From positions 13,833 to 77,832 of IMG/VR virus record IMGVR_UViG_2706795618_000001: a stretch of DNA of 64,000 nucleotides; one strand, written 5' to 3'. Below are positions 18,506 through 57,563 of this stretch, piece after piece. The stretch is from a virus. Taxonomy: Duplodnaviria; Caudoviricetes. The notes beneath the pieces are model-generated. The model worked only from the letters and a program-made list of their open reading frames with translations, ran no database searches and was not told where the DNA came from. Position 1 is the first letter of the stretch, and each line of letters opens with the position of its first letter. A program made the position numbers and the translations under genes.

Positions 18506-18522
18506 GTCTAGAGAGCTAGACT
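18506..18522 (+). promoter_or_regulatory. Perfect palindrome GTCTAG-AGAG-CTAGAC overlapping a TAGACT -10 box (leaderless promoter)
   Basis: TAGACT at 18517-18522 lies 7 nt before ATG 18530. Confidence 0.75.
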
Positions 18523-18529
18523 TCGCTGC

Positions 18530-18781
18530 ATGACAACCGCCACGCAACCACTAAACAGTCAGCGGCCCAAGGCTTCCCCGCAGGAGCGGAACCGCCATCT
18601 CCAGCGGCTGCGTCGAGCCCGAGCCCAGCAGGCCAAGCTGGAGGAGCGTCTGAAGGCATCCAACGATGAAGTGCGCCAACTGATCAAGGACGGATTCGAT
18701 CTTGGGATCAGCGGCCTGCAGCTGGGTGAGGCGGCCGGGCTGGGCAAGGCGCGCGCGTACCAGATCCGCGACGACAAGTGA
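18530..18781 (+). CDS. Small helix-turn-helix DNA-binding protein
   Basis: C-terminal LQLGEAAGLGKARAYQIRD fits an HTH pattern; N-terminal coiled coil. Confidence 0.75.
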   Translation: MTTATQPLNSQRPKASPQERNRHLQRLRRARAQQAKLEERLKASNDEVRQLIKDGFDLGISGLQLGEAAGLGKARAYQIRDDK

Positions 18782-19032
18782 GCGGACCCGACTCCCCCGC
18801 GACGGGATACACCACCGCCGGGTACATGGCCGAGATTCACCCCACCCAGGCCCGCCAGATCGAGTCGCAGTTGGCCCGGCTGGATGACGGCAACCCCGTC
18901 AAGGTGGCCCTGGGGATCGTGTTGGGGCTGGAGCTGCATGTGACGCTGGACGTGTGCCAGAGGTGCGGTGCTGTCGTCCACGACAAGGTGGACCACGGGT
19001 TCTGGCACGACCAGGTGGGTTCGGCAACGTGA
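18778..19032 (+). CDS. Hypothetical protein with CxxC...H motif
   Basis: GTGA overlap. Confidence 0.6.
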   Translation: MSGPDSPATGYTTAGYMAEIHPTQARQIESQLARLDDGNPVKVALGIVLGLELHVTLDVCQRCGAVVHDKVDHGFWHDQVGSAT

Positions 19033-19058
19033 CGCCCACCGCGTAGGGTTCCCACCCT

Positions 19059-19132
19059 GGGGCGGTAGCTCAGTCGGTTAGAGCCACGGACTCATAATCC
19101 GTTGGTCGTGGGTTCGAGCCCCACCCGCCCTA
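19059..19132 (+). tRNA. tRNA with CAT anticodon (Ile2-like or elongator Met)
   Basis: Acceptor GGGGCGG/CCGCCCT, D-arm GCTC/GAGC, anticodon stem ACGGA-CTCATAA-TCCGT, T-loop TTCGAGC; no encoded CCA. Confidence 0.93.
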
Positions 19133-19151
19133 CAAAGATCGGCCCTGTTCG

Positions 19152-19213
19152 TTGCGGCCTTTTCGTCTAGTGAGCTATAACTGTCTTACCGGGGCAGGTA
19201 CCAGACCAGCCCC
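19152..19213 (+). promoter_or_regulatory. Repeat cassette copy 1 (promoter + operator + 5' hairpin)
   Basis: TTGCGG-N18-TATAAC, GTCTAGTGAGCTA, GGGGC-A-GGT-ACCAG-ACC-A-GCCCC. Confidence 0.85.
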
Positions 19214-19233
19214 CGAGCCCCGAGGGGGACGTT

Positions 19234-19473
19234 ATGGGTCAGACGGTCAAGATCGCCAGCCGCGCGCGTCGGCACGGTGGGGGTCGTGCCCGGATCATCG
19301 CCGCGATGCGGCACTGCCAAGATCCCCAGGTCTCCGAGGACCGGCCGGGTGTCGTGGAATTCCGCGGCCTGGACGACCACGGCAAGGGGCTGGTGATCCT
19401 GGTCCGCGACGGCGACCGTCGGCCGAACGAGCTGGTGGTGTTCCACGTCCACCCGGTCGCGTTCTACCGCTGA
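19234..19473 (+). CDS. Hypothetical protein, possible BrnT/RelE-like toxin fold
   Basis: ARRHG...G.DDHG..L.I...VFHVHP pattern. Confidence 0.5.
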   Translation: MGQTVKIASRARRHGGGRARIIAAMRHCQDPQVSEDRPGVVEFRGLDDHGKGLVILVRDGDRRPNELVVFHVHPVAFYR

Positions 19474-19485
19474 CCGGCCCAGGCC

Positions 19486-19514
19486 AACACCCCGGGGATT
19501 CCCCGGGGTGTTTT
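19486..19514 (+). terminator. Intrinsic terminator
   Basis: 12-bp stem AACACCCCGGGG/CCCCGGGGTGTT followed by Ts. Confidence 0.85.
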
Positions 19515-19555
19515 GCTATCCGGCGCTGGACATTTCCACGCATTTGGCCAGCTCG

Positions 19556-19617
19556 TTGCGGGTAGGCCGTCTAGTGAGCTATAAACGAGTCACCGGGGCA
19601 GGTAGCAGACCAGCCCC
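19556..19617 (+). promoter_or_regulatory. Repeat cassette copy 2
   Basis: TTGCGG-N18-TATAAA, operator, hairpin with AGCAG loop. Confidence 0.85.
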
Positions 19618-19639
19618 CCGAGGGGAAGGAACCCCCACC

Positions 19640-20587
19640 ATGGCCGGAACAACCACCTACATCGCCACCGACCCCAATGGCACCGAGCACACCCGCGCCA
19701 GCCGAACGATGGCCTACACCCACGCCCTGCTGGTCAGCGACGACGACGCCCGCACGTGGTACGCCCGCAGCTGGCACACCAGCGAGCGGACCGCCAACGA
19801 CGCCCTGAGCTCCAACGGCAGCTACTCACCCAGCGGAATCCGTCGCCTGGTGGAGGTCACCGAGAAGCCCAAGGGCCGCCAGCCCAAGGCCAAGCTGACC
19901 CCGCTGTCAGCGGTGGGTTCGACGGGTGACGCGATCCTGGACGCGGCCGTCGCAGCCGCTGCCGACGACGCCACCACCGAGGGGGAGGAGACCCCACAGC
20001 AGCGCCGCAACCGCAAGGCGCGGGAACGGCGCGCGGCCAAAAAGCAGGCCACGGGGGAGGTGGTGGCCACGGTGACGCCGGAACCCACGGTCGAGCAGGA
20101 GGCCGAGGTCCGGGTGGTGTCATTCGCTGACGACTGGGACGCGGCCCCCGTCGGTGCCCGGCCGGTCGAGGACGACGTGCCCGCGGCCGACGACGGCCAG
20201 GAGGTGGCCGACCTGGAGAGCCAGCCCGAGGAACCGGAGGCCGACGACACCACCACGGTGGAGCCGGTAGAGGAGGGGCAGGCCGACGACACGGAGAGCC
20301 AGCCGGCCGAACCGAGCGCGTCGGAGGACGACCAGCCGGAAGTGGTGGAGGTCGAGGACCAGCCGGAACCCGAGACGGCCGACACCGACGAGGCCATCAG
20401 CGCCGCGCTGGAGGTCACCCCCGAGCAGATCGAGGAGGCCAAGGCCCAGGTGGTCAAGGGGGAGCGGTGCCCGGGATACAAGATGGCGGTTCCCGACAAC
20501 GGCAAGCGTCGCGCGGAGTGCCCGGTCTGCGGTCACAGCGTCAAGCGCTACGCCAAGTCGGGGTTGCTGGGGTCGCATCGCGCGTAG
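19640..20587 (+). CDS. Acidic low-complexity protein with C-terminal Cys/His domain
   Basis: ATG after RBS GGAAGGA; D/E-rich middle; ERCPGY...CPVCGHSVKRY...GSH. Confidence 0.8.
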   Translation: MAGTTTYIATDPNGTEHTRASRTMAYTHALLVSDDDARTWYARSWHTSERTANDALSSNGSYSPSGIRRLVEVTEKPKGRQPKAKLTPLSAVGSTGDAILDAAVAAAADDATTEGEETPQQRRNRKARERRAAKKQATGEVVATVTPEPTVEQEAEVRVVSFADDWDAAPVGARPVEDDVPAADDGQEVADLESQPEEPEADDTTTVEPVEEGQADDTESQPAEPSASEDDQPEVVEVEDQPEPETADTDEAISAALEVTPEQIEEAKAQVVKGERCPGYKMAVPDNGKRRAECPVCGHSVKRYAKSGLLGSHRA

Positions 20588-20589
20588 GC

Positions 20590-20643
20590 CCGACGTAGAA
20601 CGGGGCCGGTGGGGTAACGACCACCGGCCCCGTTCTACGTCGG
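20590..20643. terminator. 23-bp perfect inverted repeat (probable terminator)
   Basis: CCGACGTAGAACGGGGCCGGTGG / exact reverse complement, 8-nt loop. Confidence 0.75.
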
Positions 20644-20667
20644 CACGCTGGTCATCGCCGCTGGTAG

Positions 20668-20730
20668 TTGCGGCACGGCCGTCTAGTGAGCTATACCTTT
20701 CGGTACCGGGGCAGGTGACGGACCAGCCCC
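20668..20730 (+). promoter_or_regulatory. Repeat cassette copy 3
   Basis: TTGCGG-N18-TATACC, operator, hairpin with GACGG loop. Confidence 0.85.
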
Positions 20731-20750
20731 CAAACCCGAGAGGGGTACCA

Positions 20751-21257
20751 ATGTCCAGGACCGCCGACCTGCCAGCCAGCACCGCCAGCAAGATGGCCGC
20801 TACGCACGCGGTCGGCCTGTCCTACTGGGCTGACCACCCGACGGCCAGCCACGTGTGGGCGGTGGACCAGTACCAGCAGGTCCATGTGGTCAAGATCAGC
20901 GCCACTCACGGCACCGCCCAGCATGTGTGCAACCGCTATGCCGACCGCAACCACACCAGCGGGTGCGACGGGCACGACCGGGTGATGTCGTACTCCGACC
21001 CCGCGGCCATCGCGCGGGAGTTGGGCATCACGCGAGCAGCCGCCATCATGGCGGTCTGCCAGTTCGTCGCCGTGTCGGAGGTGTGGCAGCCAGCCGAGGA
21101 ACCGGCCCGGCCGCTGACCCTGGTACCGGGGGAGCGGTGCCCCGGGTACGGCCAAGTGGTGGACGGCGACGGCCACCGGGCCAAGTGCCCGCACTGCGGC
21201 CGTAGCGTCAAGCGGTACGCCACCGGCAAGCTGGGCAGCCACCGAGTCGCTGCCTGA
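20751..21257 (+). CDS. Hypothetical protein with the same C-terminal Cys/His domain as 19640-20587
   Basis: RBS GAGAGGGG; ERCPGY...CPHCGRSVKRY...GSH. Confidence 0.8.
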   Translation: MSRTADLPASTASKMAATHAVGLSYWADHPTASHVWAVDQYQQVHVVKISATHGTAQHVCNRYADRNHTSGCDGHDRVMSYSDPAAIARELGITRAAAIMAVCQFVAVSEVWQPAEEPARPLTLVPGERCPGYGQVVDGDGHRAKCPHCGRSVKRYATGKLGSHRVAA

Positions 21258-21266
21258 CCACCACCC

Positions 21267-21290
21267 CGACCCCCGGCACCCCGGGGGTCG
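21267..21290 (+). terminator. Hairpin after cassette 3
   Basis: 10-bp stem CGACCCCCGG/CCGGGGGTCG. Confidence 0.6.
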
Positions 21291-21408
21291 CCTGCTATCG
21301 GGGTGTTGGCAGCGCTGCAGCGACGCCTGCCGGACCGGCACGCGGTCGCGCGGGTAACCACACCCCGCCACCAATTCCGACCGTGCAGGCGGTCATTCTT
21401 GCTGGTAG

Positions 21409-21470
21409 TTGCGTACGGGCCGTCTAGTGAGCTATAACGGTCTTACCGGGGCAGGTACCAGACCAGCCCC
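21409..21470 (+). promoter_or_regulatory. Repeat cassette copy 4
   Basis: TTGCGT-N18-TATAAC, operator, hairpin with ACCAG loop. Confidence 0.85.
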
Positions 21471-21488
21471 CACCGGAGAGGACACAAC

Positions 21489-21704
21489 ATGGACACCATC
21501 ACCGTCTGGACCCTGATCATCGTCGGCGACAACGAGGACAGCACGTCCGTGTCGCTGCACCCCAGCGAGGCCGCAGCGCTGGGCCACCTCCGCGATTTGT
21601 ACGACATCCCGGAATGGGTCGAGGACGTGGTGGATGCGGTCAACAACGCCCCCGGGGATGAGGTGCGGTTTGTGATGCTCGACAGTCACGACCACTACTG
21701 CTAA
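21489..21704 (+). CDS. Small acidic hypothetical protein
   Basis: RBS GGAGAGGA; sole gene of cassette 4. Confidence 0.75.
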   Translation: MDTITVWTLIIVGDNEDSTSVSLHPSEAAALGHLRDLYDIPEWVEDVVDAVNNAPGDEVRFVMLDSHDHYC

Positions 21705-21717
21705 GCCCCCACCTGGC

Positions 21718-21747
21718 CGAACCCCCGCGCAACCGTGCGGGGGTTCG
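21718..21747 (+). terminator. Hairpin after cassette 4
   Basis: 13-bp stem CGAACCCCCGCGC/GTGCGGGGGTTCG. Confidence 0.7.
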
Positions 21748-21751
21748 CTCG

Positions 21752-21812
21752 TTGTGGCCCTTGGGTGAACCGAGCTACGGTCACCACCGACGGGCAGGCA
21801 TTAGGCCAGCCC
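21752..21812 (+). promoter_or_regulatory. Repeat cassette copy 5 (left operator half lost; compensatory change in hairpin)
   Basis: TTGTGG-N18-TACGGT; GGGC-A-GGC-ATTAG-GCC-A-GCCC. Confidence 0.75.
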
Positions 21813-21834
21813 CCAACCCGATAGGGGAATTGTC

Positions 21835-22107
21835 ATGTCAGACAACGTCACCGCCACACCTGGCAACTCCGACGGCGATTACGGAAAGTTTGCCGTTTTG
21901 TTCTCCCACGCCTCCAGCGCGGTCTATGACGAGCTGGTCACCACGCACCGGTTCTCCAGCGATGTCGGCGCGCGGGTGTTCGGCGACAAGATCGCCTACG
22001 TCCAGGGGGTGGAGTACGAAGTGATGGAGCTGACGGCCGACGGGTGGCGTAGCGCGCGCGGGGAATCGCCCGTCGAGGTGATCCGTCGTCGTTGGCAGGG
22101 TCGGTGA
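21835..22107 (+). CDS. Hypothetical protein
   Basis: RBS AGGGGAA. Confidence 0.7.
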   Translation: MSDNVTATPGNSDGDYGKFAVLFSHASSAVYDELVTTHRFSSDVGARVFGDKIAYVQGVEYEVMELTADGWRSARGESPVEVIRRRWQGR

Positions 22108-22370
22108 GCGGCCGCCGGCCGCGGGGCGGCGTGATGGTGCACCCCAAGGTCGAGGACTTTGCCAGCCAAAGTGAGGTGCTGGTCCAGTACACCGACGACG
22201 GGCCGGATTCGGTGGGGCTCCGCTCGTTCTTCGCGTACTGGCTGGCCGGGAACATCGGGCCGCGGAAAGATCAGTACGGGGTTCACGGCCAGGTGTTCGT
22301 CGTGCCCCCGGCGACATTCGCTGCTCGCCAGGCCATTCTGGGCGGGACCGTACGGGAATGGGTACCCTGA
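22104..22370 (+). CDS. Hypothetical protein
   Basis: GTGA overlap; start uncertain. Confidence 0.55.
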   Translation: MSGRRPRGGVMVHPKVEDFASQSEVLVQYTDDGPDSVGLRSFFAYWLAGNIGPRKDQYGVHGQVFVVPPATFAARQAILGGTVREWVP

Positions 22371-22500
22371 CCCGGGCCGTCTGCTCTGTCGTCGCGTCCG
22401 TCAATAGTGGGCATTCGACGCGCCAGGCTGTGGTTCGATTGGCCCCCAACACGGTGGGGCGCACCGCCAACACCGACAGAACGAGAGGTGCGGGTGGTTC

Positions 22501-23022
22501 GTGAAGTGTCCAGATTGCGGGTCGGCCATGACATATGGCGATGGCGACGGCGTGCACTACACCGAGGGGTACTGGTGGTGCCCGACGTGCGGCAACGAGA
22601 TTCACCCCGACGACGACGGAACAGAGGAGAAGGAAGCGCGGGCGATGACGCCAGCAGAATTCCGCATTACGCGCGACTACCTGGGCCTGCCACCCGTGTG
22701 GCTGGCCGAGCGGCTCAATGTGCGTGAGCGCACGCTGTCGCGCTGGGAGCACGGCGGTGCCCCCATCCCCCCGGGCGTGATGGAGGAGTTGGCCGCCATC
22801 GCGGAACTGACGGCGCGGCGGGTGGATTCGCTGGTCGAGGAGCTGGAGGCCGGCGGTGAGCTCGTGACGTACCGGACGGATGAGGACTACCGGTCGTCGG
22901 GGATCGCCGACGGGCGGGTGTTCCCGGCATCGTGGCACCGCGCCATCGCGGCCCGCGTGATGGATGCGTGCCCCAACGTGGTGGTGGTGTACAGCGCCGA
23001 CCAGGCGGCTGACGCCAGCTAG
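22501..23022 (+). CDS. Zn-ribbon plus XRE-type HTH protein
   Basis: CPDC/CPTC; MTPAEFRITRDYLGL..WLAERLNV.ERT..RWE HTH. Confidence 0.75.
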   Translation: MKCPDCGSAMTYGDGDGVHYTEGYWWCPTCGNEIHPDDDGTEEKEARAMTPAEFRITRDYLGLPPVWLAERLNVRERTLSRWEHGGAPIPPGVMEELAAIAELTARRVDSLVEELEAGGELVTYRTDEDYRSSGIADGRVFPASWHRAIAARVMDACPNVVVVYSADQAADAS

Positions 23023-23039
23023 CACCACGGCGTGATGTC

Positions 23040-23064
23040 GGCCCCCACCGGTATGGTGGGGGCC
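23040..23064 (+). terminator. Hairpin after cassette 5
   Basis: 10-bp stem GGCCCCCACC/GGTGGGGGCC. Confidence 0.65.
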
Positions 23065-23107
23065 GTTCGTCGTACTGGGAGCCTTTATCCACGTTTGGCC
23101 TGGTCAC

Positions 23108-23167
23108 TTGTGGCCGGATGTCTAGTGAGCTATAACTGACATCACCGGGCAGGTACCAGACCAGCCC
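23108..23167 (+). promoter_or_regulatory. Repeat cassette copy 6
   Basis: TTGTGG-N17-TATAAC, operator, hairpin with ACCAG loop. Confidence 0.85.
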
Positions 23168-23190
23168 ACAACCCTGAGAGAGGGACCAGC

Positions 23191-24390
23191 ATGTCGAACA
23201 CCACCCTTCCCCCCGTCCCCACCCGTACGCTGCGCGGCGCGAACATCGCCGATCTGGTCGGCCTGTTGCAGCTCCAGCACCGCCAGAAGGTGGACGTGGT
23301 GGTGCCGGTGTCCACCCTGGCCATGCGCGGTGGCCTGTTGCAGTTCCCGATGCTCGACCCCGTGGTGGATGAGAGCGGCGTGACCGACATCGCCGGTCAG
23401 TACCGCCGCACCGACACGGTGGACCAGCAGCTGGGCCAGCTGTTCGACATCCCGGTCCGCTACGTGCGGACGTTGGCCGACAGCTACACCGAGCTGTTGG
23501 ATACCAACGTCAACATGTGGGCCGAGAAGGAGGGGGAGTCCAGCAAGCCGCGCCGGGTGCTGGTGCGGATGCTGTACGGCCAGGACGACGACCACCCCGG
23601 CACCAACGGCCTGGTCCGCGCGATCCTTTCGAGCCGGTACGGGATCCGGGACAACCTCGACACCGTGTTGTCGGTCCTCGACGGTATGCGGGAGGGCGGC
23701 CTGGGAGCCGACAACATCCGCGGGGCCGACCTGACCGACGACCGGCTGTGGTTGCGGGTCCACGCCCCAGAGCTGGCCGTCAACGCGGGCAACCTGGCCA
23801 ACGGGTACCGGTCGCCGTTCACCGGTCAGGAAGCCAAGGATCTGCCGTTGGTCCACGCCGGCATCATCGTGGAGAACAGCGAGACAGGTGGCGGGGCGCT
23901 GAAGGTGACGCCCGAGCTGATCATGCAGGTGTGCATGAACGGGATGAAGATCAACACCGCCGCGATGCGCCGGGTCCACCTGGGCACGAAACTCGATGAG
24001 GGCCAGATCAAGTGGAGCACCGCGACGGTGGACGCGGCCAACGAGCTGACAAAGCAGCAGATCAAGGACGCGGTGTCGAGCTTCATGACCAAGGAGTTCG
24101 TGGAATCGACTGTGGCCAAGCTGAACGAGGCCGCGGGGGTGGAGATTGAAGATCCCACCCAAACGGTCGAGGTGGTGGCCAAGAAGCTGAGCTACAGCGA
24201 CGAGGTGGCCAAGGGCATCCTGGGCCACTTCATGGCCAGCGTGGTGCCGACCGGAGGTGGTCTGAAGTACACGGCCGGTCACATGATGCACGCGGTGACC
24301 AGCTACTGCCAGGTGATCGAGGACGTGGACAAGGCCAACGAGGTCGGGGCCACGGGCGTGGAGGCCATGCTGATCGCCGCGGGCCGGTAG
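23191..24390 (+). CDS. DUF932-like domain protein
   Basis: VRAILSSRY..RDN, NSETGGGALKV, VCMNGM motifs. Confidence 0.75.
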   Translation: MSNTTLPPVPTRTLRGANIADLVGLLQLQHRQKVDVVVPVSTLAMRGGLLQFPMLDPVVDESGVTDIAGQYRRTDTVDQQLGQLFDIPVRYVRTLADSYTELLDTNVNMWAEKEGESSKPRRVLVRMLYGQDDDHPGTNGLVRAILSSRYGIRDNLDTVLSVLDGMREGGLGADNIRGADLTDDRLWLRVHAPELAVNAGNLANGYRSPFTGQEAKDLPLVHAGIIVENSETGGGALKVTPELIMQVCMNGMKINTAAMRRVHLGTKLDEGQIKWSTATVDAANELTKQQIKDAVSSFMTKEFVESTVAKLNEAAGVEIEDPTQTVEVVAKKLSYSDEVAKGILGHFMASVVPTGGGLKYTAGHMMHAVTSYCQVIEDVDKANEVGATGVEAMLIAAGR

Positions 24391-24406
24391 CCCCAGCGCG
24401 AAATAC

Positions 24407-24441
24407 GAAGAACCCCCGGGTGATTGACCCGGGGGTTCTTC
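24407..24441. terminator. Probable bidirectional terminator between DUF932 gene and integrase
   Basis: 14-bp perfect stem GAAGAACCCCCGGG/CCCGGGGGTTCTTC. Confidence 0.8.
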
Positions 24442-24514
24442 CACCTTTACCCAACACCACCAGCGGGGGTTAGCGCGCCCACCCGCAGCGTGTTGGTTGG
24501 TGATCGTACAGCAG

Positions 24515-25612: not shown

Positions 25613-25743
25613 GGGTATCACAGCGGCAAGATTAGGCCCACTTACGTTTCCGTAGAAATTAGCTTCAAGATCGTTACCGTACCGTGACGAAACACGCTGT
25701 GGCAAAGGTAATCCCACGTCAGGCGGGGTGCTATGGGCGGCAG

Positions 25744-26133
25744 TCACGCTGCGTCGCAATCGCTTTGCTGAGATTGCCCGTCCGGGGCACCAGCTACCGA
25801 AGACACCAAGCTCAGCTTGGGTCGAGTCACGAAACAGAAGGTTAGGGGTTCGAATCCCTTCGGGCGCACCGCATCATCGGCGGGTGGGGGTTCCCACCCG
25901 CCGATTCCCTTTTCTAGCCAACTAACGGGCACCCCGCAGGCCAACGCCCAGGCGTTGAGAACCACTTTGCGGGGATTCGTCATTCCACGCTCGGCGTTGG
26001 ACACCACATGCCGAGACACACCCATCAGCTCGGCCAGCTGCTGCTGGTCGAGGTCTGCTTCCTCGCGCGCGATGCGCAGCCGGTACTTCAGGCGTGACGG
26101 GGGGATAGTCCCCTGTTCGTATGCGCTTGTCAT
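25744..26133 (-). CDS. Immunity repressor (XRE HTH) interrupted by attP, with C-terminal ssrA-like tail
   Basis: RLRIAREEADLDQQQLAELMGVSRHVVSNAERG; VRPKGFEPLTF; ends DCDAA; TAAAGT -10 box 7 nt before ATG. Confidence 0.92.
   Translation of the reverse strand: MTSAYEQGTIPPSRLKYRLRIAREEADLDQQQLAELMGVSRHVVSNAERGMTNPRKVVLNAWALACGVPVSWLEKGIGGWEPPPADDAVRPKGFEPLTFCFVTRPKLSLVSSVAGAPDGQSQQSDCDAA
25835..25870 (+). other. attP: attP common core, matching the 3' half of a tRNA (recalled as tRNA-Arg ACG)
   Basis: CAGAAGGTTAGGGGTTCGAATCCCTTCGGGCGCACC has a T-arm and acceptor 3' strand but no 5' tRNA half. Confidence 0.88.
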
Positions 26134-26351
26134 GTCGCGTACTTTAACGCGCTTTCGCGCGGCTTAGCAATTGTTCTAAGCCAAGTCACACGCCATAGAT
26201 ACCGCCTCAATTAGCTGCAACCAGCAAACTCCACACCACACGGCACAGGCCGCGACCACAGCAAAGGTCGCGGCCTGTGGTGTTTTCGCGTGTACACGCG
26301 AAAACGCGGAGTGTCGCACTTGCGGGCCTATGCGAATATGCGTAAAGATCC
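26134..26351. promoter_or_regulatory. Divergent repressor/early control region with palindromes
   Basis: GGCTTAG-N8-CTAAGCC 26161-26182; 14-bp IR 26244-26279; 24-bp perfect palindrome 26282-26305. Confidence 0.7.
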
Positions 26352-26582
26352 GTGCCTATGACCGACACCACAGCAACAACCAGTGACCCGCCCGAGCCCG
26401 AACTGACAGCCCGCCAAGCGGCCGCGGAGTTCGGTGTTCCGCAACGTGTTTTCCAGTACGCCGCCCAGCGCGGACTGATCCCCAACCGCCGCGTCGGCAA
26501 CGCCTACCTGCTCAACCGCTCGGGATGTGCCGCGTACGCCACGGCCTACCGATCCCGTCGGCGCGACCGGGCAGCCTCATGA
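26352..26582 (+). CDS. Cro/excisionase-like HTH protein
   Basis: LTARQAAAEFGV...YAAQRGLIP..RVG.AYL; divergent from repressor. Confidence 0.75.
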   Translation: MPMTDTTATTSDPPEPELTARQAAAEFGVPQRVFQYAAQRGLIPNRRVGNAYLLNRSGCAAYATAYRSRRRDRAAS

Positions 26583-34805: not shown

Positions 34806-34807
34806 CA

Positions 34808-50108: not shown

Positions 50109-50503
50109 TGGGATTCCACATTTTCGGTACCAAACACCTACAGCCACAACCGAGTTCAGAGGAGACACTTTCGGTGAGCGCGCCTGTCTACACCACCCAA
50201 ACCCCCAAGCCGCGCAGGCCCAAGCCCCGCAGCGCGCGAGAGGCGTTGGACCGCATTGCCCAACGGCGGGGGTGGTCGGTGGAGCAGGGGACCAAGGAAT
50301 GCGGCCACCACTGGTCGGTGTACCGGCGCGGCGACATCACCATCAGGGTGGACTGGACGTTCCGGCTCCATATCCGGTACGCCACCCTGCGTTCTCCTGG
50401 GTGTGAGGCCGACGCGCCGACCAAGGACACCCCGATGGACAGCCACCACGCGCGGTTCGCCTGGGTAGCGGACCACCTGTACCGGCAGGGGGTGCCGCAG
50501 TGA
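50108..50503 (+). CDS. Hypothetical protein
   Basis: TGATG junction. Confidence 0.55.
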   Translation: MGFHIFGTKHLQPQPSSEETLSVSAPVYTTQTPKPRRPKPRSAREALDRIAQRRGWSVEQGTKECGHHWSVYRRGDITIRVDWTFRLHIRYATLRSPGCEADAPTKDTPMDSHHARFAWVADHLYRQGVPQ

Positions 50504-51093: not shown

Positions 51094-51500
51094 TGACCGA
51101 GCAGCAGAGGGTGTGGCGGTTCCCGGGTGACACCGCCGAGGACAAGGCCAAACGTGTTGCGCTGTCGTACCGGCGGCTGGCCGAGCAGATGAACCCCGAC
51201 GCGGTGGCCAACCTGGACCGCCAGTGGCAGGACCAAGGGGTGTACTGGACCGTCCCGTCCGACGAGCCAATCGACCACGACGCCTGGCTGACCGCGGCCG
51301 ACATGGTGCTGCATCTCAAGCACCTGGTGACGCTCAACGAGCAGCAGATTCGCCAGATGGCATACCGCAAACGCAAAGGGCGCGACGGGATTATCGAGGA
51401 GCCGGGGGCCGACGGCCGACCCCGGTACAACGTCGGCGACCTGCTGGCGTACCTGACGCGGCAACGAACCCGACGACAAGGCAAGGAGGCAACAGCGTGA
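51093..51500 (+). CDS. HTH DNA-binding protein (MerR/excisionase-like C-terminus)
   Basis: W.FPGDT.EDKAKRVALSYR; IRQMAYR...PRYNVGD. Confidence 0.7.
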   Translation: MTEQQRVWRFPGDTAEDKAKRVALSYRRLAEQMNPDAVANLDRQWQDQGVYWTVPSDEPIDHDAWLTAADMVLHLKHLVTLNEQQIRQMAYRKRKGRDGIIEEPGADGRPRYNVGDLLAYLTRQRTRRQGKEATA

Positions 51501-51604
51501 GCGTCGTAATCGTCACCCCCGCACAGGCGCTGATCATCACGGCCATTGTGGTCGGCGTGATCGCCATCGGTGCCGTGGTGGTGTATTGGAGGGCCGGTAG
51601 GTGA
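51497..51604 (+). CDS. Very small membrane protein
   Basis: Single TM helix; overlaps on both sides. Confidence 0.5.
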   Translation: MSVVIVTPAQALIITAIVVGVIAIGAVVVYWRAGR

Positions 51605-52650
51605 CGGCGCGCCGAGAGATGCCCAACGGCGACATCGTGGAGTGCGCGGGGCCGGGACGGTGCCGACACTGCGACAACCCGGAGTACCAGAGCTGCCGCT
51701 GCTGCGGTGAGGACGTGCTGCCGTTCGTCGCGGGAAGCTACCCCGAACACCAGCTGTGCGACGACTGCGGCCGGGGCAAATGCACGCGCTGCATCAACGA
51801 GGTTCGCGCCATCTGGGGCGGCAAGCAGCCGCAACGCAACCCGGAACAGGACGTGATCGACGCTATCGACGCCCTGGTGGATGACCAGCTGGCCGGCGGC
51901 CCACGCGACGACTACAGCAAGCCCTACACAGAGAAGTGCCCCCAGTGCGGTGGCAGCTGGCACGGGCTCAAACGCGGCGATTGCCCTGGGGCAACGGGAA
52001 TCGAGGGCAACCCCGAGGAGGGGGCCAAGCGCGACACCGACGTGTGGGCACGCCAAGAGGACACCGACAACCCCATGACGCGGGCGGCCCGCAACATCGG
52101 ACAGGCAAGGTCGGTACTGGACCAGATTCTGGCGGCCGATCCGGGCGTACCGCCCAGTGGATTCCGGGTCGGGCGAGCAGTCGGGGAGCGGCGGCCGCCG
52201 TACAACCCCATCGACAACCGCCACCCCTCACGCCAGCAGTTCGCGATCAGCGACGCGATGGCTCTGCACTGGGATGACCTGCCGCCCATCAGAAGCGGCC
52301 CGATCCTGCATCCTCCCGGGTCGCCCCGGCCTGGGGTGATGACGTTGGACATCGTGACGGTGCAGTGCGCGGTGTTCCCTTGCACCATCCCGTTCCAAGA
52401 TGCCTGGGAGTTCCGGGTGGCCACCAGCCGAGCAGGCGACATCCAGCAGGTTGGAATGGTGATCACCACTGAGTTCCTGCGCGCGGGCTACCGGGGCACG
52501 CGGTTCTCAACGATCCCGTTGCGCCACTTGGGTGTCGAGGCTGAGCTGGTGTTGCTCCACGGCGGCACCGTGGTGATGGACGTGCCGCACCCGGGTGACT
52601 CCGAGCGGTCGGTCCGTATGGGATTCCTGGGGGCGGGGGGTATGCCGTGA
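51601..52650 (+). CDS. Multidomain hypothetical protein with Zn-binding motifs
   Basis: DVIDAIDALVD...CPQCG..WHG motif. Confidence 0.6.
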   Translation: MTARREMPNGDIVECAGPGRCRHCDNPEYQSCRCCGEDVLPFVAGSYPEHQLCDDCGRGKCTRCINEVRAIWGGKQPQRNPEQDVIDAIDALVDDQLAGGPRDDYSKPYTEKCPQCGGSWHGLKRGDCPGATGIEGNPEEGAKRDTDVWARQEDTDNPMTRAARNIGQARSVLDQILAADPGVPPSGFRVGRAVGERRPPYNPIDNRHPSRQQFAISDAMALHWDDLPPIRSGPILHPPGSPRPGVMTLDIVTVQCAVFPCTIPFQDAWEFRVATSRAGDIQQVGMVITTEFLRAGYRGTRFSTIPLRHLGVEAELVLLHGGTVVMDVPHPGDSERSVRMGFLGAGGMP

Positions 52651-52916
52651 AGCTGTCACGTCGAGAGCGCGCCGTCCTGGGCGCGCTGGCCCGCCAGGGT
52701 TCGTGGCCCCAGCGCACCACCACGGGGTGGACCGGTGAAGCGGCCCAAGCCGATTGGGTGCCCGACAGTCGGAAGGTGTTGGCCCAGCTGGCGTCTCAGG
52801 GGCTGGTGGTGGATGAGTCGCGGCCGTCGATGGTGGCGACGGGTCAGCGGGTGGTGATGACCAAGGCCAGCCGGTACAGCATCACCGACCGGGGCCGCGC
52901 GGCGCTGGGCCGGTGA
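52647..52916 (+). CDS. Winged-helix-like hypothetical protein
   Basis: LAQLASQGLV...YSITDRGR. Confidence 0.6.
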   Translation: MKLSRRERAVLGALARQGSWPQRTTTGWTGEAAQADWVPDSRKVLAQLASQGLVVDESRPSMVATGQRVVMTKASRYSITDRGRAALGR

Positions 52917-53051
52917 TGGCCCATACCCCCGTCACCGTCGAGCTGCTGCGACGACTACGCGCCCAGCAGGGGAGACCGCTACACCAGGCCCGCCACCTCC
53001 ACCTGGTCCCACCGCTGGCCGACGCTGCAAGCTCGACGTTTCAGCAGGTGG

Positions 53052-53111
53052 TTGCGGGTGGGCCGTCTAGTGAGCTATAAATCACCCATCGGGCAGGTAG
53101 CAGACCAGCCC
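53052..53111 (+). promoter_or_regulatory. Repeat cassette copy 7
   Basis: TTGCGG-N18-TATAAA, operator, hairpin with AGCAG loop. Confidence 0.85.
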
Positions 53112-53128
53112 CGACCCCGGAGGGACCG

Positions 53129-53911
53129 ATGACCACCATGACGACCCGCAAGCCCACCTACAAGTCGGAGATCCTGGGCACCGTCACCCTGAACCTGTAC
53201 ACCGATCCCCACCCCGGCCGTGACGCCAAGGACCGGGTGCCGGTGCCGTGTGCCAAGTGCGGTGGTACCGGTCGGATCGAGGCGTTCGGGTACATCGACG
53301 GTGGCCGCTGCTGGGACTGCAACGGGCACGGCCAGAGCAGCATCAGCGTCGGCACCGCCCGCAAGTACGCCCGCAGCGAGGCCTTCGCGCTGGAGTACGG
53401 CGACCAGATCGACGCCTACTGGCGCGACATCGAGGAGAAGAACCGGGTTGCCCGGGAAGCCGCGGAATGGGCAGCCGCCTGGGACGAGGCCCACACCGAG
53501 AACGCGCGCCGCGCCACCCTGAACCAGACGGTGATGGGCCAGGAGGGCGACAAGCTGGCCGACATCGAGGTGACGGTGGAGGTAGCCAAGAGCATCGAGG
53601 TGCCGGGGTACCGGTACGGCACCGACTGGAAGCGGTTCGTGGTGCTCAAGACGGCCGACGGCCAGGTGGCCAAGGTGTTCGGTACCGCGGAGTGCCTGTG
53701 GAAGGTGGAGCGCGGCGACCGCGCGGTGATCCGGCGCGCGACGGTCAAGGGTCACGACGAGTACCAGGGCCAGAAGCAGACCGAGCTGACCCGGGTCAAG
53801 CTGGAGAAGATCGAGCCCTACGAGTGCCCCGATTGCGGGGAGGGCCACGACGGCACGGTGACCGGTACCGAGCGGTGCCCGTCGTGTGAGAACGAGCCTG
53901 CCGACGACTGA
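53129..53911 (+). CDS. Zn-finger (CxxCxGxG) plus OB-fold-like protein
   Basis: CAKCGGTG...CWDCNGHG; TVKGHDEYQGQKQTELTR. Confidence 0.75.
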   Translation: MTTMTTRKPTYKSEILGTVTLNLYTDPHPGRDAKDRVPVPCAKCGGTGRIEAFGYIDGGRCWDCNGHGQSSISVGTARKYARSEAFALEYGDQIDAYWRDIEEKNRVAREAAEWAAAWDEAHTENARRATLNQTVMGQEGDKLADIEVTVEVAKSIEVPGYRYGTDWKRFVVLKTADGQVAKVFGTAECLWKVERGDRAVIRRATVKGHDEYQGQKQTELTRVKLEKIEPYECPDCGEGHDGTVTGTERCPSCENEPADD

Positions 53912-53925
53912 CCGACACCACCCGA

Positions 53926-53952
53926 CAAACCCCCCACCCGCTGGGGGGTTTG
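53926..53952 (+). terminator. Intrinsic terminator
   Basis: 11-bp stem CAAACCCCCCA/TGGGGGGTTTG. Confidence 0.75.
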
Positions 53953-53983
53953 TTGCTGGCCCGGCTGGAACTACCCTCACCAC

Positions 53984-54424
53984 ATGGGTCGAACCGTCGC
54001 CGTGATCGCCGCCGCTGCCGCGATATTGGCCGGCTGCGGCCAGCAGCCCACCGCCGCCCCCTCCACCGTCACGGTGACTGAGACCCGCACCGTCACAGCA
54101 GCACCCACCGCAGAACCCGCTGCCGCCCCCGCCGCACCATCGGGCGACACCTACCGGGGTAACGGGGTGTATGCCGTCGGCCAGCACCCGCACAGCGGCC
54201 TCAAGGCTGCGATGCCACCCGGGCGGTACACCGTGAGCCTGATGGACGACCAGGCGTTCGGTACGTGGGCGCGCTGCTCCGACGTGCTGTGCGGTTCCAG
54301 CTACCCCGACAACGTGATCGGCGACGGGATCGCCTCCGGGGTGGGGTACTCCGAGGTGGTGGAGGTGCTGCCGTCCGACGTGGCGGTGTACCTGTTCAAC
54401 GTCCGGTTCACCTCCGTCACGTAG
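53984..54424 (+). CDS. Lipoprotein
   Basis: Lipobox LAGC; Thr/Ala/Pro linker; TACCCT 6 nt before ATG. Confidence 0.8.
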   Translation: MGRTVAVIAAAAAILAGCGQQPTAAPSTVTVTETRTVTAAPTAEPAAAPAAPSGDTYRGNGVYAVGQHPHSGLKAAMPPGRYTVSLMDDQAFGTWARCSDVLCGSSYPDNVIGDGIASGVGYSEVVEVLPSDVAVYLFNVRFTSVT

Positions 54425-54535
54425 CGGTACCGCCCACACCCCTGCCGTCGCTGCCGCCAGACGGCCACCCACTAGTCGGGACCACCACAACCACTAACCG
54501 GCAGAATCGCGCCTGCACGGCCTTTGTGCAGGTGG

Positions 54536-54595
54536 TTGTGGCCGCATGGTCTAGTGAGCTATAACCGTCACAACGGGCAGGTATGAGACCAGCCC
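54536..54595 (+). promoter_or_regulatory. Repeat cassette copy 8
   Basis: TTGTGG-N18-TATAAC, operator, hairpin with ATGAG loop. Confidence 0.85.
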
Positions 54596-54614
54596 CCAAC
54601 CCCCAGGGGTAGCG

Positions 54615-54992
54615 ATGACCACCACCACCACCGCCATGACGTGGAAGTACGACAGCGAGATGTCGCGGGCGTACTGGGCCGACACCGAGCTGTACACCTT
54701 CCGCATCCGCAAGGCGACCAACGCCAAGCGCGACGGCTGGGAGGTGGCAATCAAGCACACCCTGACCACCGCCGGGGTGCGTCACAGCCTGGGCCAGCCC
54801 GACATCGCGGCCGAGGTGATCGACGGCCTGAAGATGGGCAAGCGCGTGGTGGCCCACTTCCTCGACATCGTGCCCGACGGCGAGCCCGTCAGCCCCCACA
54901 CCGCCAAGCGCGCGCTGGAGCAGGCGTTGAGCCGGGTCTACGACGAGGACAGCCGCGCCATCGTCGCGGCCTACGACGCCAGCACCCGCTGA
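54615..54992 (+). CDS. Hypothetical protein
   Basis: First gene of cassette 8. Confidence 0.75.
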   Translation: MTTTTTAMTWKYDSEMSRAYWADTELYTFRIRKATNAKRDGWEVAIKHTLTTAGVRHSLGQPDIAAEVIDGLKMGKRVVAHFLDIVPDGEPVSPHTAKRALEQALSRVYDEDSRAIVAAYDASTR

Positions 54993-55006
54993 CGCGGGGC
55001 CGACCG

Positions 55007-55411
55007 ATGAGCACCACCGACCCCTACACCCACGACCGCCAAGCCTGCAGCGACTGCGACCGTCAGCGCCGCCTGTGGGGGCCAGACAGCCACTGCGACC
55101 GTACCCACGACTTCCGCGAGGGCCAGCTGGTCACCATCGGCCGCGGCACCCGGCCGTGGACTATCACCTGGGCCACCGGCTCCCTGGTCCAGGTGTCGCG
55201 TGAGATTCCCGCCAGATACTTCGGCACGCGACTGCACAGCCGGACGTTCGGCAAGGGCGGCCGCCGGCCCATCACTGACCTGCACCTGGTTGAGCCCCAA
55301 CGGGTTCCGTTGGCCGACCGCAAGCGGTCCATCGACGGCCAGCTGGTGTGCCCGACCTGCGGGGGAATCGGGCACACCAGCTGTGTATGCAAGGGGCCGC
55401 GTATGGCGTGA
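55007..55411 (+). CDS. Hypothetical protein with Cys motifs
   Basis: CSDC, CPTCGG.GH..C.C. Confidence 0.6.
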   Translation: MSTTDPYTHDRQACSDCDRQRRLWGPDSHCDRTHDFREGQLVTIGRGTRPWTITWATGSLVQVSREIPARYFGTRLHSRTFGKGGRRPITDLHLVEPQRVPLADRKRSIDGQLVCPTCGGIGHTSCVCKGPRMA

Positions 55412-55470
55412 CGTGTCCGACCACCCGGCAACAATCCACGAAACCGCACCACTTGAACGAAAGACACCGC

Positions 55471-55833
55471 ATGACAACAACATCCATCTCCCTCAGCGTG
55501 ACCGTCGGGCTGCCCTGGGACAGCCACATGGGCCGGTCAATCCAGCTCAATCGGTACGGCCACCACCCCCAGCTGGTGGGCCACATCCGACAGCTGCCCG
55601 TCGGGGACCGCCGCGGCCACGACCGATGGACCCTGGAGCTGACCCCCTACGTGAAGGACCGGCTCAACAGCCAGCAGCGGCTGAGCATCGAGAGCATCGC
55701 CCAGCTGTGGGGCGACATGGAGCAGGCCCGCAACGGTGCCTACGTGGTGGCGGGGATGCTGCTCGCGTGGTGGCTGGCCAATCAGCTGCCGCGCAATACG
55801 TTCGATGACCTGGAGACGGCGGTGGCCCAGTGA
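55471..55833 (+). CDS. Hypothetical protein, paralog of next gene
   Basis: W..MEQ.R.GA...GM.L.WW...LPR. Confidence 0.7.
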   Translation: MTTTSISLSVTVGLPWDSHMGRSIQLNRYGHHPQLVGHIRQLPVGDRRGHDRWTLELTPYVKDRLNSQQRLSIESIAQLWGDMEQARNGAYVVAGMLLAWWLANQLPRNTFDDLETAVAQ

Positions 55834-56285
55834 TCGCCGTAGAGATCGCCGCGACGGCCAAGCCCACCGTGAAGATGGCCTACGTGTTCCACCCCGGCAC
55901 GGGGCCGTGGCGCGTGGGCAACGTGGTCCAGGACGGAGAGGGTCGGTGGCAGTTCCAGCCGCTGCCGCCATGGCGTGACCAGCTGCACGACTACCAGCGG
56001 GTGGCGCTGGGCCACGTCATCGACGGCGGTTGGGACACCTTGGAGCAGATGCGATCCGGCGCGTCAGCCGCCGTCGGCATGGTGCTGGGCTGGTGGATGT
56101 CGGGTCTGCTGCCGCGTGACGCCCTGGGCCACATGAAGTCCTACCTGACGGGCGGGCTGATCCCAACGGCGTTGGCCTGCCCCCACGGCCAGCACCAGGT
56201 GTGGTGCGGGGAGTGCCACCCGCCGTTCCGCATTGAGGACTTCATGGACGCGGAGGACTGCGACGACCCAGAGGACTACCGATGA
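55830..56285 (+). CDS. Hypothetical protein, paralog of previous gene
   Basis: Same motif plus C-terminal CPHG...CGECH. Confidence 0.7.
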   Translation: MIAVEIAATAKPTVKMAYVFHPGTGPWRVGNVVQDGEGRWQFQPLPPWRDQLHDYQRVALGHVIDGGWDTLEQMRSGASAAVGMVLGWWMSGLLPRDALGHMKSYLTGGLIPTALACPHGQHQVWCGECHPPFRIEDFMDAEDCDDPEDYR

Positions 56286-56623
56286 TCGTCAACCACAGCG
56301 TGCAGGCCCGGGAGGTCCGCGTGGGGGATCTGGTGGCCCCCAACGGTGCCGACGACGCACCGCTTATCGCCCAGGTGCAGACCCACCGGCTGGAGCGCGG
56401 CGACGCCATCTATACCGCCGTCTTCCAGCTGGACCTGGAGGTCGAGGACCGGCCCCGGGTGCTGGAGTTCATCGTCCCGGCCCACTTCCCCGTGATGGTG
56501 GGCCGACCGGCCAACGACGGGTCGCCGGCACAACAGGTCACCGAGCTGTGCGACCGGCTGGGGCTGGAGTGGCGCTACCTCGACGGTGGAGGGCTGGCGA
56601 TCACTCCATGGTCGGCGCGATGA
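56282..56623 (+). CDS. Hypothetical protein
   Basis: ATGA overlaps. Confidence 0.6.
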   Translation: MIVNHSVQAREVRVGDLVAPNGADDAPLIAQVQTHRLERGDAIYTAVFQLDLEVEDRPRVLEFIVPAHFPVMVGRPANDGSPAQQVTELCDRLGLEWRYLDGGGLAITPWSAR

Positions 56624-57048
56624 ACGCCGACCAGCTGGGGGAGATCCAGCAGACCATGTTGCACGACATGCGGCTGTACCAAGGCAATCACTTTGGCAGC
56701 CAACGGAAGTGGGGGAGCGCGGAGCGAAAGGTGTTGGCCAGCCTCCACGCTCGTGGCCTGGTCACGTCGGAGTACCGGTACGCCAGCCTGACCCCGGAGG
56801 GGCAGCGGGTGGCCGACGCCATCATCGCCGAGGTGTGGAAGCGCGAGCCCATCCCAGCGGGCGACACCATCGTGCTGGTGACGCCGTGCGGCCCACACGC
56901 CACCAAGGCGTTGTGTGGTGGGTGCAGCGACGACCGAGGGGTGCGGTGGGTGTGCCATCTGCTGGGCCACAGCGACGAGGCCGACACCCTGGCGTGCGCT
57001 CACCGACACGCTGCCGGGCACGGCCAAAACCACGACCGCTATAACTGA
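56620..57048 (+). CDS. Winged-helix-like plus Cys/His protein
   Basis: VLASLHARGLV...SLTPEG. Confidence 0.6.
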   Translation: MNADQLGEIQQTMLHDMRLYQGNHFGSQRKWGSAERKVLASLHARGLVTSEYRYASLTPEGQRVADAIIAEVWKREPIPAGDTIVLVTPCGPHATKALCGGCSDDRGVRWVCHLLGHSDEADTLACAHRHAAGHGQNHDRYN

Positions 57049-57075
57049 TTCACCGGGGCAGGTACCGACCAGCCC
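57040..57075 (+). promoter_or_regulatory. Repeat cassette copy 9 (-10 box and hairpin only; no operator or clear -35)
   Basis: TATAAC then GGGGC-A-GGT-ACCG-ACC-A-GCCC. Confidence 0.7.
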
Positions 57076-57097
57076 GACGAACCCCGAAGGGGGCGGC

Positions 57098-57472
57098 ATG
57101 GCGACAAGGCAACCCATGATTGCGCTGCTCGCGGCGCTGACCGTCGCGCTGGTCGGCTGCTCGACCGCCGGCCAAACCCCACCTACCCCGACGAGCACCA
57201 CCACGGCGACCAGCACGACGGCCCCCGTTGCCCTCACTGACCAGGACCGGGTGTTCCTCGACCAGCTCCAGAGCGACGAGGCGATGTGGCAGCGTCAGTT
57301 CAGCTTTGTGCCAACAGATGTGCTGACGGGGGTGGGCCACAGGGCGTGTACCGAGCTTCGGTCTGATTGGGATGGCGCGATACAGGAGGCCGTTGAATCC
57401 GGTATCGACCGGGACGCGGTGGTGGCACTGTTGGACGCTGCAATCGTCGCCTACTGCCCCGACCTGCAATAG
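57098..57472 (+). CDS. DUF732-like lipoprotein
   Basis: Lipobox LVGC; D..FL..L, GH.AC, AAIVAYCP. Confidence 0.8.
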   Translation: MATRQPMIALLAALTVALVGCSTAGQTPPTPTSTTTATSTTAPVALTDQDRVFLDQLQSDEAMWQRQFSFVPTDVLTGVGHRACTELRSDWDGAIQEAVESGIDRDAVVALLDAAIVAYCPDLQ

Positions 57473-57501
57473 CCGCTTGCGCTGGACAAACATGCAGATA
57501 G

Positions 57502-57563
57502 TTGCATGTTAAAAGTCTAGTGAGCTATAAACGAGTCACCGGGGCAGGTACTGGACCAGCCCC
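57502..57563 (+). promoter_or_regulatory. Repeat cassette copy 10
   Basis: TTGCAT-N18-TATAAA, operator, hairpin with ACTGG loop. Confidence 0.85.

Follow-up and report, generated by a model that had tools for sequence, protein, structure and literature searches.

A dyad in dispersed promoters of a Cluster Y mycobacteriophage is a candidate operator of the small helix-turn-helix protein gp39

Introduction

Which protein reads a short DNA word that recurs inside eight promoters of a mycobacteriophage genome, and what would it do there? The question is raised by a 64,000-nucleotide (nt) stretch of the IMG/VR record IMGVR_UViG_2706795618_000001, which is analysed here at its full length (hereafter the window) and comprises positions 13833–77832, that is the right 64 kb, of this 77.8-kb virus record. 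A sequence-only reading of the window had noted the word between the -35 and -10 elements of eight dispersed promoters, and a fully symmetric version of it over the promoter of a small gene (18530–18781, here gp39) that encodes a helix-turn-helix (HTH) protein. It was proposed that this protein autoregulates and shuts off two islands of accessory genes independently of the immunity repressor, and that the divergent gene 18230–18421 and a tRNA gene fall under the same switch.

In sequence comparison, the window is ~98% identical to Mycobacterium phage Cracklewink of the genus Bippervirus, and by this measure the window phage is a member of the Cluster Y group of temperate siphoviruses of M. smegmatis. 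More distant Cluster Y relatives in the phage collection are Typha, Hilltopfarm and Nadezda, which share ~74% identity in conserved genes. Here, we compare the word, its promoters and the candidate regulators across these and other genomes, and arrive at a probability of roughly two in three that the 16-bp dyad GT(C/A)TAG-N4-CTA(G/T)A(C/A) is the operator of gp39, a phage-encoded dimeric HTH repressor.

Results and discussion

A 16-bp word is confined to two gene islands

Pattern scanning of the window returned the word GTCTAGTGAGCTATA in eight exact copies, all on the plus strand, at exactly the positions given before (19165, 19569, 20681, 21422, 23120, 53065, 54549 and 57515). A ninth copy at 18506 deviates by two mismatches and is the palindrome GTCTAGAGAGCTAGAC, a perfect dyad GTCTAG-AGAG-CTAGAC that indeed covers, at 18506–18521, the TAGACT -10 element of the leaderless HTH gene. 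Shuffled sequences yield an expectation of 0.13 matches to the GTCTAGTGAGCTATA pattern, and nine matches were reached in 0/100 shuffles. The scan of the 77.8-kb genome revealed exactly nine sites with none in the structural genes and the early operon, and the reversed control pattern gave zero matches across the whole genome. The tetranucleotide CTAG is strongly avoided in the window (28 observed versus 191 expected occurrences), and all nine GTCTAG hexamers in the window belong to the nine sites. The sites are confined to two islands, with the eight exact copies at 19.1–23.1 kb and at 53.0–57.5 kb.

The word is built into predicted promoters at a fixed position

The eight copies are embedded in promoter-like elements of constant layout, and the 17–18-nt spacing claimed for the -35/-10 pairs around them holds for each (Table 1). 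Every copy is located 6–7 nt downstream of a TTGCGG, TTGTGG, TTGCGT or TTGCAT hexamer, which is separated by a 17–18-nt spacer from TATAA(C/A) or TATACC, with the right arm of the operator being part of this -10 element. The -10 hexamer reads TATAAC or TATAAA in seven of the eight promoters and TATACC in the remaining one. With the A of ACCGGGGC as predicted transcript start, the operator spans about -23 to -8 of the predicted promoter and the dyad is centred at ~-15.5. Promoter, operator, a leader hairpin and a ribosome-binding site (RBS) together form a cassette of ~80 bp, whose copies are similar from the -35 element to the RBS.

Both arms of the word are conserved in relatives and its centre is free

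Typha, Hilltopfarm and Nadezda possess 8–10 sites each, which are located in the same two islands; in these three genomes we found zero sites in the structural genes or the long early operon. The motif scan of related genomes, which had been suggested as a check, revealed that the arms GT(C/A)TAG and CTA(G/T)A(C/A) are kept in these relatives, while flanks and centres diverge. The central 4 nt read TGAG, AGAG, TTTG, TGGA, TGCC, CGAG or GTTG, and symmetric variants such as GTCTAG-TGGA-CTAGAC, GTCTAG-TTTG-CTAGAC and GTATAG-TGCC-CTATAC are found. Across 32 distinct Cluster Y sites, the arms have near-maximal information content, and that of the central 4 nt is much lower. Such a pattern, in which the arms are centred ten bp apart and the middle is free to vary, is characteristic of sites for a dimeric DNA-binding protein. 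Judging from these comparisons, the 16-bp word is most likely a two-fold symmetric operator of such a protein, as the sequence-only reading had supposed. The word is missing from the early promoter PR of the immunity region and from a further promoter at 21752, and host polymerase therefore does not need it.

gp39 is a small HTH protein with a predicted leaderless mRNA

The HTH assignment of the 18530–18781 product is borne out by a profile search, in which gp39 matches phrog_686 ('HTH DNA binding protein') with E 4.6e-18 over residues 14–82, and by an AlphaFold2 model comprising a 41-residue helix followed by a three-helix HTH (predicted local distance difference test score, pLDDT, 91). The long helix of the model would be suited to dimerisation. 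No Pfam family reaches threshold with gp39, no sequence relative was found among solved structures, and Foldseek searches with the model returned generic HTH rows only, all at E>1. An exhaustive profile search among 1.8 billion proteins identified a family of 28 representatives at E<=1e-3. These are small proteins that share the C-terminal signature ELRxLIxEGFxxGIxGxxLAxAAGLSxPRVYQIRDGRR, within which the helix PRVYQIRDGRR is near-invariant in the family alignment.

The ATG at 18530 is located 7 nt past the -10 element of the gp39 promoter, P39, and the mRNA is thus predicted to be leaderless. The -35 and -10 elements of P39 and the start codon are kept in Typha, Hilltopfarm and Nadezda; the left operator arm is found only in the window and in Cracklewink. 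A 'weaker half-site' had been proposed at 18492–18505. This segment is better read as harbouring the -35 element TAGTCA of P39, which is kept in Typha.

The gp39 family and the word co-occur in unrelated phages

Phage homologues of gp39 are found in Cluster Y, in Cluster F and in the unrelated myoviruses of Cluster C2. Myrna and ScoobyDoobyDoo, which encode members of the family at E ~1e-26, carry 11 and 8 sites of the form TCTAG-N4-CTA(G/T)A, respectively, and the control pattern occurs 0 times in both. All copies in Myrna reside in promoters composed of TTGCGN, an 18-nt spacer and TATACT, TAGACT or TAGAAT as -10, which is the same architecture as in the window. These promoters are near-identical to one another (TTGCGN-N8-TCTAG-N4-CTAKAnT), and 8 of the 11 sites are found 6–8 nt before an ATG, indicative of leaderless messages. 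Phage Bxz1 of Cluster C1, which shares host and virus family with the C2 phages, possesses neither a gp39-family protein nor any site. A search of 50,697 phage records with Myrna gp249 returned members of C2 and Cluster Y and no other phages, and the two groups are therefore mutual nearest relatives for the gp39 family. The Cluster F homologues, whose genomes are devoid of sites, branch off further away and differ in their N-terminal half.

Searches of larger collections gave a similar picture. Among IMG/VR contigs, those of Typha and Myrna are the only ones with several copies of the promoter word TTGCG-N9-TCTAG-N4-CTATA; one further copy is present in Phabba, and five other single matches come without a gp39-family protein. 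In 596 Gb of bacterial genomes we found only 82 scattered single matches, none of them clustered and none in a record that is mycobacterial by title, and a host feature was rejected as the origin of the word. Only six proteins are detectably common to the window phage and Myrna. The immunity repressor, a Zn-ribbon/XRE protein (22501–23022), WhiB and gp84 have no Myrna homologue. Two other proteins shared with Myrna, which are of unknown function and, unlike the tail or lysin-like ones, have no structural assignment, were rejected as binders: phrog_8743 is missing from the motif-bearing phages Typha and ScoobyDoobyDoo, and phrog_1362 is present in the motif-free phage Bxz1.

A metagenome scan retrieved 73 loci encoding gp39 homologues. 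In 5–6 diverged lineages (33–51% identity), a palindrome overlaps the -10 element of the homologue's own leaderless promoter, just as it does at 18506. In 18 soil contigs the arrangement is TTCTAG-CGCG-CTAGAAT, 7 nt, and the ATG of a 64-residue homologue, and another homologue promoter reads TTGACA ... GTCTAG-CTTC-CTAGACT, 6 nt, ATG. Further dyads in homologue promoters are CCTAG-GTTG-CTAGACA and the A-variant TATAG-CACG-CTATAAT. The reversed control pattern is present at 0/54 metagenomic homologue loci. Thus, the family tracks the motif across unrelated phages and palindromes occur on the homologues' own promoters, which lends comparative support to the proposal that the HTH protein is the binder.

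The same soil contigs (L166–L183; e.g. L167, 5213–5280) contain tandem dyads, TATAG-CGTG-CTATAAT and TTCTAG-CGCG-CTAGAAT, before the homologue gene. They represent a widespread soil actinobacterial element with a gene of the actinobacterial family DUF732 nearby; apart from DUF732, Pfam searches on the contig context of the metagenomic homologues were uninformative.

The immunity switch lacks the word

Independence of the regulon from the immunity repressor had been proposed before, and inspection of the immunity switch agrees with it. With up to 2 mismatches allowed, GTMTAG-N4-CTAKAC has no match in 25744–26400 or in the equivalent region of the relatives (five genomes). The promoter PR of the switch consists of TTGCGG, 17 nt and TAAAGA (26321–26349). 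The immunity repressor belongs to the HTH_3 family and is 67% conserved in Typha, and conservation alone therefore does not exclude it as binder. We rejected it nonetheless, as its own switch has no site and carries different, unique repeats. In the literature, Cluster Y is connected with the integration-dependent immunity cassettes known from BPs-like phages (PMC7194413), and a lysogen of the Cluster K4 phage Yasnaya_Polyana was reported to be immune to the Cluster Y phage Nadezda, without explanation of the basis (PMC12699233).

A predicted feedback circuit

If gp39 is the binder, the sites suggest the following circuit. A bound gp39 dimer would block access of RNA polymerase to the -10 element of host-type (SigA-like) promoters; with the dyad centred at ~-15.5 and its right arm in the -10 element, a bound dimer should therefore exclude polymerase. 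The eight promoters in the two islands would each drive one short accessory-gene unit, and the ninth, perfectly symmetric site on gp39's own leaderless promoter would provide negative feedback. Upon entry of the genome into a gp39-free cell, all promoters would fire at once. Accumulating gp39 would then shut these promoters as well as its own gene, and in a lysogen it would hold the promoters low. This circuit would operate independently of the integration-dependent immunity repressor, whose sites at PR are of another kind. In the cassettes, the hairpin at the 5' end of the RNA would in addition most likely affect stability or translation of the message.

A number of observations weigh against this reading. 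A strict sigma-70 consensus scan calls none of the eight promoters, whose -10 elements lack the usual final T (-7 T); this may mean that the promoters are weak by design or depend on a factor. Part of the right arm, the TA, is constrained by the -10 element itself. The Cluster F homologue has a recognition helix nearly identical to that of gp39, yet its genome has zero sites, and in the C2 phages the gp39-family gene is an internal operon gene that has no own site. At 47 of the 54 metagenomic homologue loci there is no site within 400 nt of the gene. Finally, P39 of Typha, Hilltopfarm, Nadezda and the Cluster-Y-like contig L164 has retained TAGTCA, TAGACT and the leaderless start, but of the operator it possesses the right arm only (GGTAAG-CGAG-CTAGAC). 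Strong autoregulation would therefore be a peculiarity of the Bipper/Cracklewink lineage. The autoregulation claim thus stands, as a prediction, for the lineage with the perfect palindrome and falls short for the others.

The missing -7 T could also mean that gp39 acts as an activator or as a promoter-specificity factor for such -10 elements. The failure of all eight window promoters in the strict scan would fit, some database records label the Cluster F homologues 'RNA polymerase sigma factor', and the weak Foldseek rows include sigma region 4. However, activators bind upstream of or over the -35 element, or, in the case of MerR-type regulators, within spacers of 19–20 bp. A dyad centred at ~-15.5 and overlapping the -10 element is unlike these positions, and in Myrna the word is found in promoters whose -35 and -10 elements (TATACT, TAGACT, TAGAAT) already match consensus and which should need no activator. 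Repression is favoured for these two reasons; moreover, regulators under negative feedback typically have such a site on their own promoter, here a strong leaderless one. We consider an activator role improbable.

Alternatively, the operator may be real and be bound by another protein, namely by the Zn-ribbon/XRE protein, the immunity repressor or a host regulator. The Zn-ribbon/XRE protein (phrog_664, HTH_31, with a weak Aca2-like match) is one candidate: it is 67% identical in Typha, which equals the conservation of the immunity repressor, and it is encoded inside island 1 and transcribed from the operator-less part of this island. The lineage-specific occurrence of the perfect palindrome at gp39 would likewise be accommodated. 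However, Myrna has the same operator core and a homologue of neither protein, the immunity switch is without a site in any of the five genomes, and palindromes are found on the promoters of the gp39 homologues themselves. As to a host regulator, the myovirus Bxz1 infects the same host and is free of sites, and the bacterial genomes contain no clusters of them. A binder other than gp39 thus appears unlikely, although it is the alternative to which we give most weight. It could finally be argued that no dedicated regulator exists and that a single strong promoter cassette was copied by duplication or recombination, its symmetry being incidental. Indeed, the eight window copies are identical including the central TGAG, and the similarity extends over the whole cassette. 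But at ~74% genome identity flanks and centres have diverged while both arms stayed and symmetric variants arose, and the same core recurs in the unrelated C2 myoviruses and in the promoters of distant homologues, with unrelated flanks. This makes mere copying very improbable, and gp39 acting as a repressor through the dyad remains our preferred interpretation. We also discarded the idea of promoters for a T7-like phage polymerase, which is brought up by a loose resemblance of the word to the SP6 promoter: there is no polymerase gene, and a host-type -35 element is present at fixed spacing. The annotations of Cracklewink, Typha, Hilltopfarm and Nadezda list neither an RNA polymerase gene nor a sigma gene.

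Relation to known phage regulators

A repressor operator embedded in a promoter is an ordinary and familiar form of phage control. The repressors of Cluster A phages (L5 gp71, Bxb1 gp69) have many dispersed operator or stoperator copies, one of them over a promoter. The scenario proposed here is alike in that one phage HTH protein, here a candidate, would act on many dispersed short sites in its own genome. Stoperators are asymmetric 13-bp sites of the immunity repressor, to which it binds as a monomer; they share one orientation and are distributed over transcribed regions. In contrast, the sites described here are 16-bp dyads found inside predicted promoters only; the candidate protein comes from a small family without relation to those repressors, and immunity is controlled by another protein with other sites. 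A second precedent is provided by Aca1 and Aca2, small HTH proteins that bind as dimers to inverted repeats over a strong phage promoter and by feedback damp the initial burst of accessory-gene expression. Inverted repeats overlapping a promoter, here a predicted one, and self-feedback, here likewise predicted, are common features. However, an aca gene resides in its own operon and acts on one promoter, whereas the gp39 gene stands outside the units that it would control, at eight or more promoters. Moreover, no anti-CRISPR genes were identified here, and the only, weak, Aca2-like match lies in the other protein at 22501–23022.

For Cluster K phages, Pope et al. in 2011 reportedly described Start-Associated Sequences (SAS) and extended SAS, an imperfect inverted repeat with variable spacer, before the RBS of many non-structural genes. 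The leader hairpin followed by a GAGGGG RBS resembles this element. It differs from it in sequence, in the presence of a promoter-operator module and in the position of the hairpin at the predicted 5' end of the transcript. In Cluster O phages, 8–9 SigA-like promoters are predicted, several of them leaderless, and the dyad TGTTCGG-N3-CCGAACA is repeated more than 30 times (PMC4351075). Most of these repeats are off promoters; the dyad was attributed to an unidentified dimeric DNA-binding protein, and the authors doubted a role in transcription (PMC4351075). What Cluster O phages and the window phage, both mycobacteriophages, have in common are predicted promoters in several copies, leaderless starts and a dyad repeat. 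Unlike in Cluster O, the window has no site outside a predicted promoter, and there is a candidate for the cognate protein.

Searches of the accessible literature on promoters of Cluster Y, Bipper, Cracklewink and Myrna yielded no description of the motif or of the regulator. What appears to be new is the proposed pairing of the gp39 family with this operator in groups as different as temperate siphoviruses and lytic myoviruses, and the modular promoter-operator-hairpin cassette. An uncharacterised HTH family thereby gains a candidate 16-bp operator and a complete predicted target list, covering five Cluster Y phages and Cluster C2. The regulation of two 'dark matter' accessory islands, which include a candidate BrnT-like toxin gene, becomes directly testable. 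Furthermore, mycobacterial genetics could gain a switch from a compact pair of repressor and operator suited to SigA-type and leaderless promoters. More tentatively, and with clearly less confidence than in the operator itself, one may speculate that the gp39 family and the TCTAG-N4-CTAGA promoters constitute a portable 'fire once, then shut off' module in unrelated mycobacteriophages, that is in the temperate siphoviruses of Cluster Y and the lytic C2 myoviruses. Such a module might grant a brief immediate-early burst of accessory functions for host takeover or counter-defence and add a second layer of control that is independent of immunity; in Cluster Y it might be coupled to a 5'-terminal hairpin setting lifetime or translation of the message.

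The leader hairpin is separable from the operator

The sequence-only reading had overlooked a conserved hairpin in the leaders as well as two loci that carry it without an operator, a cassette at 21752 and a promoter-less leader at 57038. About 9 bases past the -10 element, an invariant A-C-C is followed by the hairpin GGG(G)C-A-GGT-N5-ACC-A-GCCC(C), and further downstream by a GAGGGG-type ribosome site and the start codon. The hairpin would thus occupy ~+3 to +28 of the predicted transcript, i.e. the extreme 5' end of the message. The stem is paired in all 20 distinct copies from four genomes, and the loop varies freely. Within this set, one stem pair has changed from U-A to C-G five times and is never broken. 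The window hairpins have a fixed A-A mismatch, which in some copies of Typha, Hilltopfarm and Nadezda is C-A or a fully paired C-G.

In the operator-less cassette, the hairpin at 21792–21812 carries a compensated GGC/GCC variant. The hairpin of the remnant leader (57056–57075) has a 4-nt loop, and similar operator-less copies are present in Typha and Nadezda. Operator and hairpin are therefore separable elements. The hairpin more likely acts as an RNA feature, on stability or translation of the message, than as a second DNA site, but a single covarying pair is not decisive. At gathering score, the leader hairpin has no match in Rfam, the tRNA being the sole Rfam match in the window; a search of IMG/VR with the hairpin word returned Typha and chance matches only, and blastn with the cassette found Cluster Y phages only.

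Table 1. Positions of predicted promoters, candidate operators and related features in the window and of the corresponding sites in Myrna
Feature	Position	Strand	Description
P39	18494–18529	+	-35 TAGTCA 18494–18499; 17-nt spacer; -10 TAGACT 18517–18522; operator 18506–18521
gp39	18530–18781	+	83 residues; candidate operator-binding regulator; helix 17–57; C-terminal HTH at 62–69 and 73–80
gp40	18778–19032	+	positioned on the P39 transcript; co-transcription predicted from position
tRNA-Met	19059–19133	+	26 nt past gp40; intervening terminator not seen
Cassette 1	19152–19233	+	-35 TTGCGG; operator 19165–19180; hairpin 19192–19212; RBS; then BrnT-like toxin gene 19234–19473
Cassette 2	19556–19639	+	operator at 19569; hairpin 19596–19616; then gene 19640–20587
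Cassette 3	20668–20750	+	operator GTCTAG-TGAG-CTATAC at 20681; hairpin 20709–20729; then gene 20751–21257 (DUF7457)
Cassette 4	21409–21488	+	operator at 21422; hairpin 21449–21469; then gene 21489–21704
Operator-less cassette	21752–21834	+	-35 TTGTGG; 18 nt; canonical -10 TACGGT (21776–21781); then gene 21835–22107
Cassette 5	23108–23190	+	-35 TTGTGG; 17-nt spacer; operator at 23120; hairpin 23147–23167; then gene 23191–24390 (phrog_1362)
Immunity switch	25744–26349		repressor gene 25744–26133 (minus strand); 24-bp palindrome 26282–26305; PR 26321–26349
Cassette 6	53052–53128	+	operator at 53065; hairpin 53091–53111; then gene 53129–53911
Cassette 7	54536–54614	+	operator at 54549; hairpin 54575–54595; then gene 54615–54992
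Promoter-less leader remnant	57038–57097	+	GCTATAAC without left arm or -35; RBS; ATG at 57098
Cassette 8	57502–57584	+	-35 TTGCAT; operator at 57515; hairpin 57542–57562; then gene 57585–57941
Myrna sites (NC_011273)	2996, 4591, 9328, 13343, 20166, 52012, 56683, 57028, 89619, 133406, 134633		loci L043–L053

Neighbouring genes and further observations

The tRNA had been proposed to be under the same switch. The tRNA-Met gene follows gp40 with no terminator in between and is probably on the P39 transcript; it is this position that speaks for co-transcription. For the divergent gene 18230–18421, assigned to the switch as well, no promoter overlapping the operator was found. Its sole conserved promoter-like element is TTGACC on the minus strand (18466–18471), ~35 bp from the palindrome, and control of this gene by the operator is therefore unsupported.

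Between the immunity repressor gene and PR, a perfect 14-bp stem followed by Ts is found at 26244–26279. It adjoins a perfect 24-bp palindrome (GTTTTCGCGTGT/ACACGCGAAAAC, 26282–26305), which is unique and absent from Typha; the latter has a different hairpin at this place. The PR core TTGCGGGCCTATGCGAATATGCGTAA is identical in the window phage and Typha, and the PR spacer is conserved.

The cargo of the cassettes is mostly of no assigned function and includes a BrnT-like toxin, DUF7457, phrog_1362, phrog_4095 and phrog_6718. In cassette 6, the operator at 53065 overlaps the last codons of the open reading frame 52913–53080. In phages of the Typha group, the gene of the BrnT-like toxin is found in inverted orientation with an operator promoter of its own (L002, 7311–7426; L003, 7343–7468), which is arranged back-to-back with the promoter of the next cassette at a distance of ~100 bp. 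In Nadezda and Hilltopfarm, the operator of the inverted toxin gene is the perfect dyad GTCTAG-TTTG-CTAGAC.

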